A stretch of DNA of 39,198 bases from a virus, in IMG/VR virus record IMGVR_UViG_3300045988_156947, positions 1 through 39,198 of that record. One strand, 5' to 3'. The notes beneath the pieces are model-generated. The model saw only the letters and a list, made by a program, of their open reading frames with translations, was not told where the DNA came from and ran no database searches. Made by a program: the position numbers and the translations under genes. Below are positions 1,313-4,167 of this stretch, piece by piece (the stretch's first letter is position 1; every line of letters starts with the position of its first letter).

Positions 1313-1564
1313 CTATGCCTTCTGCACTCGGCTTATCGCGTCGCGCGTTTCCGCAATAGGAATATCGAGCGCGGCAGCCATTGAGAGCGCTGCCGCTATT
1401 CGCCACTGATCGGAAGGCTTGCGAAACATCGTGTCAAGCTGCGAGCGCGTCACGCTCATTCTCTCGGCAAGCTCCGTGTTGGTCATGCCGAGTGTTGCCT
1501 TGCGACCGAGCACAAGCTCCTTGAGCGGGTCGCGCGGCTTTTTGTCAAATCTCGTCTTGGGCAT
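1313..1564 (-). CDS. Small HTH DNA-binding protein (early regulator, Cro-like candidate)
   Basis: TAAGGAGG RBS before ATG 1564. LGMTNTELAERMSVTRSQLDTMF looks like a helix-turn-helix. Sits directly upstream of the replication gene. Confidence 0.7.
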   Translation of the reverse strand: MPKTRFDKKPRDPLKELVLGRKATLGMTNTELAERMSVTRSQLDTMFRKPSDQWRIAAALSMAAALDIPIAETRDAISRVQKA

Positions 1565-1576
1565 TGCATATCCTCC

Positions 1577-1720
1577 TTATTTGTTGTAGCGTTCGCGCCT
1601 CTTGGCGCATTCGCGCTCGGCTGCGTCCGCAAAGCTTACCATCGCGTGTATCGCGCCGCCGATGATAAAGAAAACTCCCATCAGTATCATCACGCACTTG
1701 CAAAGTGTGATAGCTCCCAT
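1577..1720 (-). CDS. 47-aa hydrophobic peptide (MGAITLCKCVMILMGVFFIIGGAIHAMVSF...)
   Basis: AAAGGAGAAG RBS before ATG 1720. One predicted TM helix and a basic tail. Its stop overlaps the RBS of the next gene. Below the track length cutoff. Confidence 0.45.
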   Translation of the reverse strand: MGAITLCKCVMILMGVFFIIGGAIHAMVSFADAAERECAKRRERYNK

Positions 1721-1739
1721 TTTTATCTTCTCCTTTCGA

Positions 1740-1898
1740 TTAAGCGCTCTCGCGCTTGTCGTCCTTGTCCTCGGCTTTTGCCTCCATCAGGTCTGCCACC
1801 GCGTCGGCGTAGCCGTTGAAATACTGCTGCTTGCTGGGCGGCAGCTTCTCAAAAGCTCCTGCAAGCTCCCTCAGCGCGTTTCTCTCCTGTTCGCTCAT
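1740..1898 (-). CDS. 52-aa acidic helical protein (MSEQERNALRELAGAFEKLPPSKQQYF...)
   Basis: GGAGGTGAAACC immediately upstream of ATG 1898. First RBS-led ORF of the minus-strand early operon. Confidence 0.5.
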   Translation of the reverse strand: MSEQERNALRELAGAFEKLPPSKQQYFNGYADAVADLMEAKAEDKDDKRESA

Positions 1899-1925
1899 GG
1901 TTTCACCTCCTTGTGTTGTCCGTCC

Positions 1926-1954
1926 TTGACAACCTGAAAATCTCCCGATACAAT
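1926..1954 (+). promoter_or_regulatory. Near-consensus sigma-70-type promoter TTGACA-17-TACAAT
   Basis: TTGACA at 1926-1931, exact 17-nt spacer, TACAAT at 1949-1954, pointing into the ORF-free segment. Confidence 0.6.
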
Positions 1955-2690
1955 ATTCTTTATCCCCGACGCTGACGCGGCGGAAGAAAGGGGGTGTTTC
2001 CTATCGCAACAGCAGAGGTTTTACTTACTGCCTGTATAAGCGGAGGATTTTCACCGCCCCGTACCCGAAGTTGGGCGACCCTTACCCGACTGTCCGATGC
2101 GTGGATACCGTGAGCCACCCACGGAGTGAAGACGCAAGGTCAAGAAGCGTTGCTGTTCGACGCGCACCGAACCGCCAACCACAGCGGGAAAGTGCTGCAA
2201 CCGCATCGGGAAAAATGTGGGGAGGGAGTGACCGCAGAACAGCTACGGTCGTTCCCTTCTCGCATCGGGAGATTTTCAGATTGTCAAAGTATGTTGTTTC
2301 CAATAGCGCTTGTGAATGAAATGCATACAAAACTGCGAAGCCCCGTTAATCTGCATCCTGCGGCCCGCGCCGTATAATAAGGGAGGTGTTGAAGTTTGAA
2401 AGCAATTTTGACTCTTCCCGTGCGCAGGGACTGAAAACCACAGTCCGTTGATGCGTGGATACGCGGAACTCAAACCGTGAGTGAAACGAGCGGATAAGCA
2501 AAGCGTGTTTTGCCGCTTGATTTCTGTCGCCGACCATAGCGGTGGAAATCTGCATCCGCTTCTGCGCGAAAATTGGGGGATATGGCGGGCAGCGAGTGAA
2601 AAGCTGCAAAACCGTTGTCCGTCATGTTCTCCTCCGCAGTCCTGTATGCATTGTCAAAGTTTCTGTATCTTCAACTAATAAGGAGCAGCC
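1955..2690 (+). ncRNA. ORF-free segment of two diverged tandem units of about 355 nt; candidate large structured RNA or long regulatory leader (strand not proven)
   Basis: No RBS-led ORF. The track shows only short mutually overlapping ORFs on both strands. Internal duplication at offset about 354 nt (GATGCGTGGATAC at 2096 and 2450, plus further blocks). Preceded by a strong promoter. Confidence 0.35.
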
Positions 2691-3017
2691 ATGAATTTTG
2701 ATAAAGTGTTTCTCTCGTCCATGGATACTCGCGTGCTTTTAGCGGTCGCCACTGCCGAAGTGGTGCGCCTGCATCCGGTAGATGCCGAGCATCTTCTGTC
2801 TCTCGGCTTCATCGCGCCTTATGCGCTGTCAGAGCGCGCGGACGAGTTTGTCATAACCCTCGAGGGCTCTCGCTATGCCGAATACCATCGGCAGAAAGAA
2901 AGCGACAAGGCGAAAGCCGAAGAGTTCGCCCGGTTCTCGCGCCGGGTTTCACTTGCGTCTTTGGGCGTTGCGATATGCAGTTTTCTGCTTTCGCTTTATG
3001 CGCTCTTCTTTCGTTGA
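2691..3017 (+). CDS. Hypothetical 108-aa protein with C-terminal TM anchor
   Basis: AAGGAG RBS before ATG 2691. C-terminal hydrophobic helix VSLASLGVAICSFLLSLYALFF. Confidence 0.6.
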   Translation: MNFDKVFLSSMDTRVLLAVATAEVVRLHPVDAEHLLSLGFIAPYALSERADEFVITLEGSRYAEYHRQKESDKAKAEEFARFSRRVSLASLGVAICSFLLSLYALFFR

Positions 3018-3125
3018 GAAGATGGTGCGCTCCGCAATCACAAGTATGATGAACATTCCTGTTCCCACGCCCGCGCCGAATGCCGCCAAAAGCCCCATGA
3101 GCAAATCGAGCTTATCGACTAACAA
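2949..3125 (-). CDS. Possible 58-aa small membrane protein (TTG start), convergent with and overlapping the 3' end of 2691..3017
   Basis: GAGGAGG lies 8 nt upstream of TTG 3125. LLMGLLAAFGAGVGTGMFIILVIA hydrophobic helix followed by the polybasic tail KEERIKRKQKTAYRNAQRRK. Confidence 0.25.
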   Translation of the reverse strand: MLVDKLDLLMGLLAAFGAGVGTGMFIILVIAERTIFSTKEERIKRKQKTAYRNAQRRK

Positions 3126-3227
3126 CCTGTTCACCTCCTCGCGCTGTATCTTCAATGCTACTTTTTCATTGTTAATCCTTGTTATTTCGTGATATTGATG
3201 GTAATATCGACATAGGAGGGATAAAAA

Positions 3228-3620
3228 ATGAAAAATTTCAAACAACAAGCAATTAGCATCCTCGTCGCGCTCAGTATGATTTTCACTTCTGCACTTTCTC
3301 TTTCGGCTTGCAGCAGTGACCAATCACTCAGCAAAGAAACCCCCGCAGCTACAACAGGAATGGTCTTGCCGAAGCCGACACCAGCGTATACCCCAACTCC
3401 TGCACCCGCATACACTCCAACTCCTGCGCCTGAAAAAGTCCAAACTCATTACGCAACTCGACCTCTTTCAGGCTATTCTCTTGAAATGACCGTTTATGTA
3501 TCGGATAGCGGCGGCAAAATCCATATCAATCCGCATTGCAGTGGCATGAAATACTACACAGTTATGAGCTACGGCGATGCGTGTGAATATGGGTTTTCTC
3601 ACTGCAAGAACTGTTTTTGA
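3228..3620 (+). CDS. Secreted lipoprotein with Pro/Thr-rich linker and Cys/His-rich C-terminal domain
   Basis: AGGAGGG RBS. Signal peptide with lipobox LSAC. PTPAYTPTPAPAYTPTPAP repeat. C-terminus HINPHCSGMKYY...SHCKNCF. Confidence 0.8.
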   Translation: MKNFKQQAISILVALSMIFTSALSLSACSSDQSLSKETPAATTGMVLPKPTPAYTPTPAPAYTPTPAPEKVQTHYATRPLSGYSLEMTVYVSDSGGKIHINPHCSGMKYYTVMSYGDACEYGFSHCKNCF

Positions 3621-3704
3621 GTTTCATTAGTTCATTGCTCGGCTATATAGTATCATTGCTAAGGTATGCTGTCAAGCCTTTTTTATTGCCGGGCAATATT
3701 TTTC

Positions 3705-3733
3705 TTGACGAGCGGGTTATAATATGCTATTGT
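3705..3733 (+). promoter_or_regulatory. Promoter-like hexamers upstream of the repressor gene (TTGACG-17-TATTGT; a TATAAT also lies inside the spacer)
   Basis: TTGACG at 3705-3710, TATAAT at 3718-3723, TATTGT at 3728-3733. Which -10 element is used cannot be decided by eye. Confidence 0.3.
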
Positions 3734-3756
3734 CTTTACCGAAAGGAGGTAAAGAC

Positions 3757-4167
3757 GTGAGCACATTTGCAGAAAGACTTTCAGAGGTTATTGCTGACTC
3801 CAAGTTAACTAAGACGAAGTTTGCCGAGGTAGTCGGAATATCTCAGCCGTTTCTAAGTCAGATATGTTCTGGTGTTAAAGTCCCGAGCAGTCGCACCGTA
3901 TCGGACATTTGCAGCAAATTTCATGTTGATGAGATCTGGCTCAGGACTGGTGACGGAAAGATGCACCTCGATGTGACGCGCCGCGAAGCTGTCGCGGACT
4001 TCCTCGCGGAGATTCTCAGCGGCGGCGGCACTCCCGAACAAATCGCGTTCATATCCGTCATAGCGAAAACCACGCCCGAACAATGGAAACTGTTCCGCGC
4101 AAAGCTCGCCGAACTCAACGGCGAAATATCACTTTCCGAAAAAGAAAACGGAGAGAACACCGAGTAA
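3757..4167 (+). CDS. XRE/CI-type repressor
   Basis: GGAGG lies 7 nt upstream of GTG 3757. HTH LTKTKFAEVVGISQPFLSQICSGVKVPSSRTVSDICSKFHVDEIWLRTG. Lies in the lysogeny module. Confidence 0.8.
   Translation: MSTFAERLSEVIADSKLTKTKFAEVVGISQPFLSQICSGVKVPSSRTVSDICSKFHVDEIWLRTGDGKMHLDVTRREAVADFLAEILSGGGTPEQIAFISVIAKTTPEQWKLFRAKLAELNGEISLSEKENGENTE

Follow-up and report, generated by a model that had tools for sequence, protein, structure and literature searches.

Two diverged tandem units (unit A, 1926-2290; unit B, 2320-2660) were identified within positions 1926-2660 of the IMG/VR virus record IMGVR_UViG_3300045988_156947, which was analyzed over its entire length of 39,198 nt (hereafter the window). 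The window represents a temperate, complete-looking phage of ~39 kb from gut metagenomes, with sister contigs of 38-39 kb, and the units lie in a 790-nt gap that separates its minus-strand and plus-strand gene sets. The identification of the units as two diverged copies, on the plus strand, of a cassette built around the RNA motif FuFi-1 (Rfam accession RF02986) is well supported. The mechanism that we infer as most likely is that of a leader or attenuator transcribed in the lysogeny direction, and the combined explanation, tandem FuFi-1 cassettes together with this mechanism, is favored with moderate confidence.

FuFi-1 was described as an orphan motif by Weinberg et al. (2017; PMC5737381), where it is one of four motifs credited with features of "sophisticated biochemical function" and with 3' terminators. 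No self-cleavage was observed, and a riboswitch was judged unlikely because the motif rarely occurs in 5' untranslated regions (UTRs) (PMC5737381). Full-text searches of the literature that was available returned no later work on FuFi-1.

FuFi-1-like cores in the two units

In a permissive Rfam scan of positions 1700-2900, unit B matched RF02986 on the plus strand at 2446-2627 (41.3 bits, E 3e-7) and unit A at 2092-2258 (34.3 bits, E 1.8e-5), both across model positions 1-175 and both below the gathering score of 59.6 bits. Across the whole window, no Rfam family was matched at its gathering score. RF02986 matches were also found in the units of sister contigs. Additionally, a small covariance model of our own (R1), built from ten AT-rich canonical cores with the terminator left out, recovered unit B over its full length (19.6 bits, E 5e-4). 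An earlier note on this DNA, made from the letters alone, had proposed a duplicated structured RNA that resembled no known RNA core. The duplication and its plus-strand structure are borne out here, and the absence of a known core has to be revised in view of the full-length FuFi-1 matches. The ROOL and GOLLD classes that had been suggested gave no Rfam match at the gathering threshold in the whole window, nor at E <= 10 within 1700-2900. No riboswitch class in Rfam was matched either, and besides FuFi-1 the permissive scan returned only one microRNA model at chance level.

The sequence facts of the earlier note were all re-checked and all hold. Exact repeats were found at 2096-2108 and 2450-2462 (GATGCGTGGATAC) and at 2280-2290 and 2650-2660 (ATTGTCAAAGT), and the blocks 2173-2223 and 2528-2580 share 75% identity, with a local alignment score of 35 against 18.8 +/- 2.4 in shuffles (maximum 30), or about 6.7 standard deviations above. 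Overall, the similarity of the two units is significant but distant, with an identity of ~65-75%. The helices that had been drawn by eye, 2094-2101 with 2202-2209 and 2224-2234 with 2246-2256, were present in the minimum free energy (MFE) and centroid folds as well as in the alignment folds. Compared to shuffled sequences, the plus-strand folds of the two units had z-scores of -7.3 and -6.4. On the minus strand the fold of unit A was equally good, and that of unit B was far worse (-116.5 vs -144.4 kcal/mol on the plus strand).

Helix for helix, both units agree with the consensus architecture of FuFi-1. The core of unit B (2446-2627) was identified by the Rfam match, the R1 match, and a compensatory change in P2. 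It includes P1 (2446-2449/2485-2488), P1a (CGCGG/CCGUG; 2462-2466/2475-2479), P2 (AGCGGA/UCCGCU; 2489-2494/2555-2560), P2a (AAGCG/CGCUU; 2501-2505/2514-2518), P2b (GAUUUC/GAAAUC; 2519-2524/2545-2550) with a nested hairpin at 2527-2542, the UGCA joiner (2551-2554), and a 3' hairpin (2582-2588/2619-2625). The P1a loop of unit B, AACUCAAA, is a good match to the canonical GAACnAAAAC, and a pseudoknot between this loop and the linker (CUCAA at 2469-2473 with UUGGG at 2573-2577) was recognized by inspection. The compensatory change in P2, from G-C to A-U, was observed in L176, a relative with a single unit.

The core of unit A (2092-2258) was assigned from its Rfam match and from collinear patches shared with L195, a bona fide FuFi-1 locus. 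It contains P1a (CCGUG/CACGG; 2108-2112/2120-2124), P2 (GC..GGU/ACCGC; 2134-2140/2200-2204), P2a (GCGUUG/CGACGC; 2147-2152/2158-2163), P2b (GCAC/GUGC; 2164-2167/2192-2195) with a nested hairpin at 2172-2187, the UGCA joiner (2196-2199), and a 3' hairpin (2224-2234/2246-2256). In its P1a (CCGUG-AGCCACC-CACGG) the stem was kept and the loop has diverged; the pseudoknot, again found by inspection, pairs CCAC (2115-2118) with GUGG (2217-2220), and in the relative L035 it pairs CCGC with GUGG. Between units A and B the sequences of P1a, P2, P2a, P2b, and the pseudoknot differ yet stay paired, and the loops and joiners are conserved, including GAUGCGUGGAUAC, GAGUGAA, the CRACCAYA loop, and CUGCA. 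The P2/P2a/P2b three-way junction is found in both units with an AUAGAA-like joiner (UCAAGAAGC in unit A, AUAAGCAAAGC in unit B) and UGCA.

The units thus resemble FuFi-1 in the full-length model match, the strand, the GAAC..AAAC-type P1a loop of unit B, the loop-linker pseudoknot, the three-way junction with AAGAA and UGCA joiners, the A-rich linker ending in UUGGGG, the 3' hairpin, the upstream micro-open reading frame (micro-ORF) that bona fide members also carry, and the phage switch context. In contrast, they differ from it in their scores (34 and 41 bits), in lacking GGUAAAC and a U tract, in the diverged loop of unit A, in the tandem arrangement, in the nested P2b hairpin, and in the long inverted repeats that enclose them. 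The nested P2b hairpins, which canonical FuFi-1 does not have, carry a conserved 8-nt loop, CRACCAYA (CAACCACA and CGACCAUA), and could serve in docking or in the binding of a protein.

Several results weigh against the assignment. Both scores fall under the gathering cut-off, and canonical representatives, the bona fide phage members, score 80-140 bits. The conserved linker GGUAAAcAAAUUUgGg is incomplete, with only its 3' part retained as AAAUGUGGGG in unit A and AAAUUGGGGG in unit B and with GGUAAAC absent, and a pattern scan built on the canonical linker did not match the window. The 3' hairpins (2224-2256 and 2582-2625) are followed by CCCUUCUCGC and CAUGUUCUCC rather than by a U tract; a terminator scan called neither of them, and its only plus-strand call in the gap was a hairpin internal to unit B (2501-2518). 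Moreover, R1 does not detect unit A, and a sequence-only nhmmer profile of canonical cores detects neither unit. The units are filed as a variant, as remote, sub-threshold relatives of FuFi-1 and not as members by Rfam's own criterion: they score below the gathering threshold and have neither the linker motif GGUAAAC nor a terminator rich in U, all three of which define the family.

The FuFi-1 cassette in gut phages

Canonical loci were collected from IMG/VR with the linker pattern TGCA N8-14 GGTAAANAAATTTNGG, which returned more than 120 contigs, mostly from one human gut virome, in ~18 sequence types. In an alignment of 17 types, the consensus helices (P1, P1a, P2, P2a, P2b, and the terminator) were paired in 89.7% of the cells, compared to 75% in shuffles, and changes on both sides were observed in 32 of the 42 pairs. 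When the partner strand was slid by 1-3 columns as a control, pairing dropped to 36-45%. The pseudoknot between the P1a loop and the linker was 97.6% paired in the canonical set, with its variable pair occurring as UA (9), CG (6), and AU (1). G.U pairs were common and A.C mismatches rare in these helices, which indicates that the Rfam strand is the RNA strand.

The Rfam model covers only the pseudoknotted three-way-junction part of a longer cassette, whose full order is a sigma-70 promoter, a 5' hairpin, a Shine-Dalgarno (SD) site, a micro-ORF of 12-26 codons, the pseudoknotted three-way junction, and a 3' hairpin. Neither the SD site with its micro-ORF nor the covarying pseudoknot appears in the nested Rfam consensus structure shown by cmscan. 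In nearly every canonical type, a strong promoter (e.g., TTGAAA-17-TAAAAT, TTGACA-17-TATCAT, and TTGACT-17-TACTCT) lies at the same relative position as that of unit A and is followed by a small hairpin and by an AAAGGAG-type SD site, which precedes the micro-ORF by 7-9 nt. The bona fide loci L048-L167 (e.g., L048:7130-7170, minus strand) carry this strong SD site with the micro-ORF MTKLLNLPCSLL and variants of it.

Under a strict filter, 97 of the 114 canonical cores were preceded by a micro-ORF with an SD site. Its consensus N-terminus is MTKLLxLP[CV][SP]..., and examples of it include MTKLLNLPCSLL, MTKLLNLPVPMF, MTKLLTLPVPLI, MTQLLTMPAPLLQGRI, MTKLLTLPCSLYELS, MTKLLTLLVPNREVGVMR, MTNLLTLPVPTRRNGAMR, and MKAILKLPCSYIITMRKADL. 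The start codon varies among ATG, TTG, and CTG at a fixed place, and the Leu and Pro codons vary synonymously; six synonymous and zero non-synonymous changes separate L119 from L102 across LPCSLYELS. Judged from these sequences, the micro-ORF is probably translated. In a GC-rich subfamily it ends in or beside the GAUGCG helix strand, and in many types at least 100 nt lie between the micro-ORF and the core. A type I toxin was considered and rejected, as the conserved peptide is only ~12 residues long; this is too short for a membrane helix. No tandem second copy was observed among the ~120 FuFi-1 loci fetched.

Relatives of the window units proved to be rare. No match was found by blastn among 50,697 GenBank phages, either for positions 1900-2700 or for the canonical cassette of L048, and IMG/VR was not matched by patterns from the blocks shared between units A and B. 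An A/B-type pattern had two matches in GTDB genomes, a Planctomycetota metagenome-assembled genome and Halomonas, which were taken as chance, and eight in JGI metagenomes, where only L176 was real; L176 is the only real relative from the large scans. A loose three-part FuFi pattern gave only chance matches inside coding regions, and the RNA was absent from IMG/VR phages with a 55% identical replication initiator. L176 has a single unit that is 76% identical to unit B, with a promoter and an inverted repeat of the type of unit A. L195 (MT835537.1) scores 95.6 bits and bridges canonical FuFi-1 to the window: its linker and 3' hairpin are 74% identical to those of unit A (E 0.003), a collinear patch reads CAAGAAGC..GCTGTT, and it shares the inverted repeat between promoter and post-hairpin region, a weak U tract, and a micro-ORF (MTKLLTLPVPDRGDTA).

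Expression signals, inverted repeats, and natural deletions

Unit A opens on the plus strand with a sigma-70-type promoter (1926-1954; TTGACA, 17 nt, TACAAT) whose transcript is expected to start near 1961. With a match of 11/12 it was the best promoter-like site within 1500-3800, where a scan returned eight sites against 1.6 expected, and the earlier claim of a promoter firing into the gap is upheld. Both hexamers were kept in L035 and L176, and the spacer varies. A leader hairpin follows (1967-1996; CCCCG..CGG..GGGG) and ends in the SD-like AAAGGGGGTG; its inner stem CCGACGC/GCGGCGG is replaced by CCGGTGC/GCACCGG in L035, a compensatory change, and canonical cassettes contain an analogous 5' hairpin plus GAAAGGAG. 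An open frame of 39 codons begins at a GTG within the SD site (1994-2113, plus strand; ...EVLLTACIS...), and L035 shows two synonymous changes and one non-synonymous change across LLTAC. Its translation is doubtful because the spacing from the SD site to the start is poor. The SD and micro-ORF segment of unit A is present in two damaged copies. The first (1986-2040) retains the SD site but no start at a proper distance from it, and the second (2038-2070), which contains another micro-ORF remnant with no start (2047-2070, plus strand), has lost the start region that L195 and unit B retain.

In unit B the layout is that of the canonical cassettes, with a 5' hairpin in the MFE fold (2359-2374), the SD site GGGAGGTG (2381-2388), and a micro-ORF of 12 codons (2396-2434; TTG start, MKAILTLPVRRD, stop), all on the plus strand. 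Homologues of this micro-ORF were found as MKALLILPVHGD in L176, as MKAILKLPCSYII... in L109 and L116 (MKAILKLPC... in L109), and as MTKLLTLPVP... in L067, L061, and L195. The promoter site of unit B appears to have decayed (ATGAAA ... AGCCCC, aligned with the reverse complement of the right arm of its inverted repeat). The SD site and conserved micro-ORF are hence clear in unit B and degenerate in unit A. Since the promoter is present only in unit A and an intact micro-ORF only in unit B, the two units probably form one transcription unit starting from 1926-1954. As a natural tandem variant whose copies have lost complementary parts, this sub-threshold pair adds to the known range of the class. 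Tandem riboswitches likewise place two homologous structured domains in series in one leader; in contrast to these, no expression platform is evident in the window, and unit B looks like a once-independent cassette that lacks its promoter.

These short frames also qualify the earlier description of the gap as free of ORFs: no long gene is present, but short ORFs led by ribosome-binding sites do occur, namely that of unit B and the frame behind AAAGGGGGTG in unit A. A conserved translated ORF spanning the units was not found, and only micro-ORFs upstream of the cores were conserved. Long coding ORFs across the units were rejected, as they have no ribosome-binding site, overlap on both strands, and are destroyed by natural deletions.

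The most conspicuous feature of the gap, which the earlier note had missed, is a long inverted repeat around each unit. The left arm of unit A (1926-1949) comprises the -35 element and spacer of the promoter and is 24 nt long, with 96% complementarity to the right arm (2264-2287) directly 3' of the core hairpin. In unit B, the left arm lies in the apparent decayed promoter (2320-2340; 21 nt, 86% complementary), and the right arm (2632-2652) differs by three mismatches, all A.C on the plus strand. Co-variation of the arms is seen in L035, L176, L067, L195, and the L109 family, with three double compensatory changes plus a repaired mismatch in L035 and with six of the seven differing positions compensated in L176. 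Similar arrangements with unrelated arm sequences were found in L035, L176, L067 (18/18), L195, and the L109 family. All arm mismatches seen (about nine, not all independent) are A.C on the FuFi strand and thus G.U on the opposite strand, and among the significant cases RNAduplex consistently gave the minus-strand arm duplex the higher predicted stability. Because the left arm of unit A lies upstream of the transcription start, the helix cannot form in the FuFi RNA. Most likely, the arms pair in the read-through RNA of the opposite-strand early lytic operon, where the helix is possibly an RNase III site. Most canonical types do not have such a repeat, and it is therefore not part of the core function. 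No other copy of the arms was found in the window, and a role as general operators was rejected; likewise, a P4-like immunity RNA, as once suggested, finds no repeated targets, as neither the arms nor the unit motifs recur within the 39 kb. L109, L189, and L190 carry three copies of the half-site AGTTAGGA(T/A)AT. One lies within the FuFi promoter spacer, one, in inverted orientation, just past the FuFi terminator, and one within the cI promoter spacer; this third copy suggests an operator-like role in that family.

These properties of the repeat could also mean that the early lytic transcript is itself the functional molecule, with the cassette serving as a barrier of convergent transcription or antisense between the immediate-early and later early genes and with the repeat forming a helix of 18-24 bp, e.g., an RNase III site that excises the antisense stretch. 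The position of the left arm restricts the helix to minus-strand RNA or to DNA, the bias of the mismatches and the stability of the duplex point to the minus strand, and in canonical loci the cassette is flanked by genes of the early operon, cro-like on one side and anti-repressor or replication genes on the other. However, most canonical types, including the commonest, have no inverted repeat, and the conservation of the plus-strand fold, pseudoknot, and micro-ORF would be left unexplained. The mismatch bias derives from few events, some of them related by descent, and the third direct half-site in the cI promoter of the L109 family suggests an operator instead. We regard the barrier as possible but unlikely.

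The inverted repeat would also allow the units to be invertons, in which flipping would turn the promoter and the cassette away from the lysogeny genes and toward the early lytic operon. The 24-bp repeat flanks 314 bp, with the -35 element and spacer inside the repeat and the -10 element just inside the left arm; homogenization by recombination would also be expected to make the arms co-vary, and no leftward promoter was seen next to the 52-aa early gene at the left border of the gap. In contrast, no flipped orientation occurs in ~20 independent metagenome contigs, and no invertase gene is nearby, the only recombinase being the phage integrase. The arms are imperfect, especially in unit B, the one-sided A.C bias is unexpected for DNA sites, and in the sister phages that carry a cro module, early-operon transcription originates further to the right. 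Inversion is accordingly considered very improbable.

Clean deletions of the cores were recurrent among ~20 contigs that are 95-99% identical elsewhere (L002-L011 and L178-L188). Positions 2421-2509, part of the core of unit B, are deleted in four contigs, and 2074-2242, with the core of unit A, in three. Larger losses were observed in other sister contigs, and several phages have no intact core at all. The promoter and the repeat arms were kept in every deletion contig. This recurrent loss in near-identical phages indicates that the RNA is not essential for them, and the deletions, together with the tandem variant of the window, provide an allelic series ready for genetics. The segment from the units to the repressor gene was also swapped as a module among these phages, containing the 108-aa gene, the lipoprotein gene, or a cro/helix-turn-helix (HTH) module. 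In L179, an insertion of ~460 nt (1841-2299) lies between the 52-aa early gene and unit A; it has ORFs of 68 and 74 aa, and window positions 1903-1921 are duplicated at its borders.

The deletions of one or both cores in phages of 97-99% identity, the lack of a usable micro-ORF start in unit A and of a promoter in unit B, and Rfam scores far under those of canonical members would also be expected of decaying remnants with no present function in this lineage. Against decay, units A and B retain every helix through compensatory differences at ~65-75% identity, the changes in L035 (89% identical) and L176 (76%) are compensatory rather than random, and the folding z-scores are -6 to -7. Decay of the whole element is thus thought improbable.

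Position at the lysogeny region and possible roles

Across 18 sequence types, the cassette always faces a cI-like repressor gene and opposes the early lytic operon, with the minus-strand early genes upstream when the cassette is drawn from left to right. In most types, the stop codon of a small, convergent XRE gene (cro-like) comes next after the 3' hairpin, at -21 to +29 nt, and the co-oriented cI-like gene lies beyond it. In L109, L057, L067, L123, and L195 the cI-like gene, with its own promoter, directly follows the 3' hairpin. PHROG assignments were confirmed for five types, among them L048, where an anti-repressor gene is adjacent upstream. The FuFi-1 class hereby gains a biological address in the lysis/lysogeny region, aimed at the repressor, along with a conserved micro-ORF and a covarying pseudoknot.

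The window shares this context, as the units lie in the lysis/lysogeny region, antisense to early lytic genes and with a co-oriented cI-like XRE gene downstream; the sister phages L008 and L183 have the canonical layout with both units. Leftward from 1898, the minus strand encodes the 52-aa protein, a 47-aa membrane peptide, a weak XRE HTH protein (83 aa), and a Lin1244_N replication initiator. Plus-strand genes from 2691 include those of a 108-aa protein, a lipoprotein-like protein (130 aa), the cI-like XRE repressor, an HTH protein with a transmembrane segment, and a tyrosine integrase. The 108-aa gene (2691-3017), the first downstream of the units, has a ribosome-binding site and no convincing promoter of its own, and it is therefore probably expressed by read-through from 1926-1954. 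The repressor gene (3724-4167, plus strand) has the same orientation as the units and matches Pfam HTH_3 and PHROG transcriptional repressor families. The location of the units as a leader of the plus-strand lysogeny-side genes, proposed earlier, is supported by these results. The label of a genetic switch fits the units only loosely: just upstream of the cI-like gene, a back-to-back pair of promoter-like sites (TTGACA-17-TACTAT on the minus strand, 3675-3647; TTGACG-17-TATTGT on the plus strand, 3705-3733) probably constitutes the actual PR/PRM-type switch. Leftward transcription starting at 3647-3733 would cross two plus-strand genes and both RNA units in antisense before the early genes are reached.

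In the mechanism that we favor, the cassette would be a transcription unit of the lysogeny direction that opposes the leftward early lytic operon. A single RNA would run from 1926-1954 through both units into the 108-aa gene, toward the lipoprotein, cI-like repressor, and integrase genes. The fold of this RNA and translation of the micro-ORF may be coupled, perhaps with a ligand or protein involved as well; in the window units, the GAUGCG strand could either form the outer helix 2094-2101/2202-2209 or leave its partner free for P2. The fold would control the share of transcription that continues past the 3' hairpin into the genes on the repressor side, along with the strength of the opposition to the antisense early transcript, and two units in series would act as two checkpoints.

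Some of the findings run counter to this mechanism. The element is dispensable and may be decaying here, as near-identical phages have lost one or both cores, and no U tract follows the 3' hairpins, such that an attenuator based on an intrinsic terminator is not evident in the window phage. The micro-ORF nucleotides are themselves highly conserved, and the conservation could partly act on RNA or DNA rather than on the peptide. At canonical loci, a promoter that belongs to the cI-like gene lies past the FuFi terminator, and this would also allow the cassette to be a separate gene for a small RNA (sRNA).

Such a free, possibly dual-function sRNA is the main rival. Each unit would then specify a discrete, stable RNA of ~300-350 nt that acts in trans on a protein, ribosome, or mRNA, possibly with a micro-peptide as a second product, and the position at the switch would reflect co-expression with the repressor. 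FuFi-1 is typed as an sRNA in Rfam, and its 3' terminators and rare 5' UTR location were noted upon discovery (PMC5737381). Canonical cassettes have a strong promoter of their own and a U-rich terminator and often abut a convergent gene, the cI-like genes are served by a downstream promoter, and the pseudoknot and junction are more elaborate than a simple attenuator needs. However, the 3' hairpin has no good U tract in the window, L176, or L195, the downstream genes of the window are co-oriented and have no convincing promoter, and an RNA that acts in trans would not need the strictly conserved orientation toward the cI-like gene. We consider this rival doubtful for the window units.

Comparison to known systems offers partial parallels for the lysogeny-direction leader. 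The lambda P_RE and oop transcripts and P22 sar are convergent, lysogeny-direction transcripts inside the early operon and are either short, simple antisense RNAs or products of an activator-dependent promoter. The FuFi-1 promoter has the same position and orientation, downstream of cro, against the early transcript, and toward the repressor. As with oop and sar, its RNA is antisense to the region between the first and the next early genes, and in one FuFi-1 locus an anti-repressor gene comes next, as in sar. In contrast, no relation in sequence or structure was found, the window promoter is near-consensus, and the RNA combines a complex fold with a micro-ORF; the likeness would be one of functional analogy rather than of membership. 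Leader-peptide attenuators (erm/cat and ARE-ABCF) share the order of promoter, SD site, conserved short ORF, structured RNA, and 3' hairpin or terminator. In the GC-rich FuFi-1 subfamily, where the micro-ORF stop lies in or next to the 5' helix strand (GAUGCG), a terminating ribosome would interfere with folding. These attenuators differ from the canonical loci, where the downstream gene is convergent, the fold is far more elaborate, and, in many types, the micro-ORF lies at least 100 nt from the core.

A more general proposal is that FuFi-1 cassettes form a widespread RNA decision module of temperate Firmicutes gut phages, an attenuator that senses translation or a ligand at the place of CII/P_RE in lambda and that would gate establishment transcription directed at the repressor and at the same time oppose the early lytic transcript. 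The window would represent a two-stage version of it, with the inverted repeat as a processing helix of the antisense mRNA. This extension is put forward only tentatively and as a speculative one. If lysogeny is indeed gated by this RNA, a large group of gut phages would possess an RNA-based equivalent of the decision that the CII protein makes.

Several further observations concern the window phage and its genes. No family match was found for the 108-aa protein, and a protein search of IMG/VR returned no relatives of it; the 52-aa gene had just two relatives in a protein-based search, and no leftward promoter beside it was seen in the promoter scan. The portal protein shares 30% identity with Bacillus phage portals. 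Positions 1-286 contain a 24-nt tandem repeat of 11.9 copies (95% match); read on the minus strand, it specifies octapeptide repeats in a DUF7666-like early protein, which continues past the left end of the window. Within the Lin1244_N replication-initiator gene (421-1296), ACTTT is repeated nine times at 798-842 (also readable as a 15-nt unit in three copies), and these repeats look like iterons of an origin inside the initiator gene.

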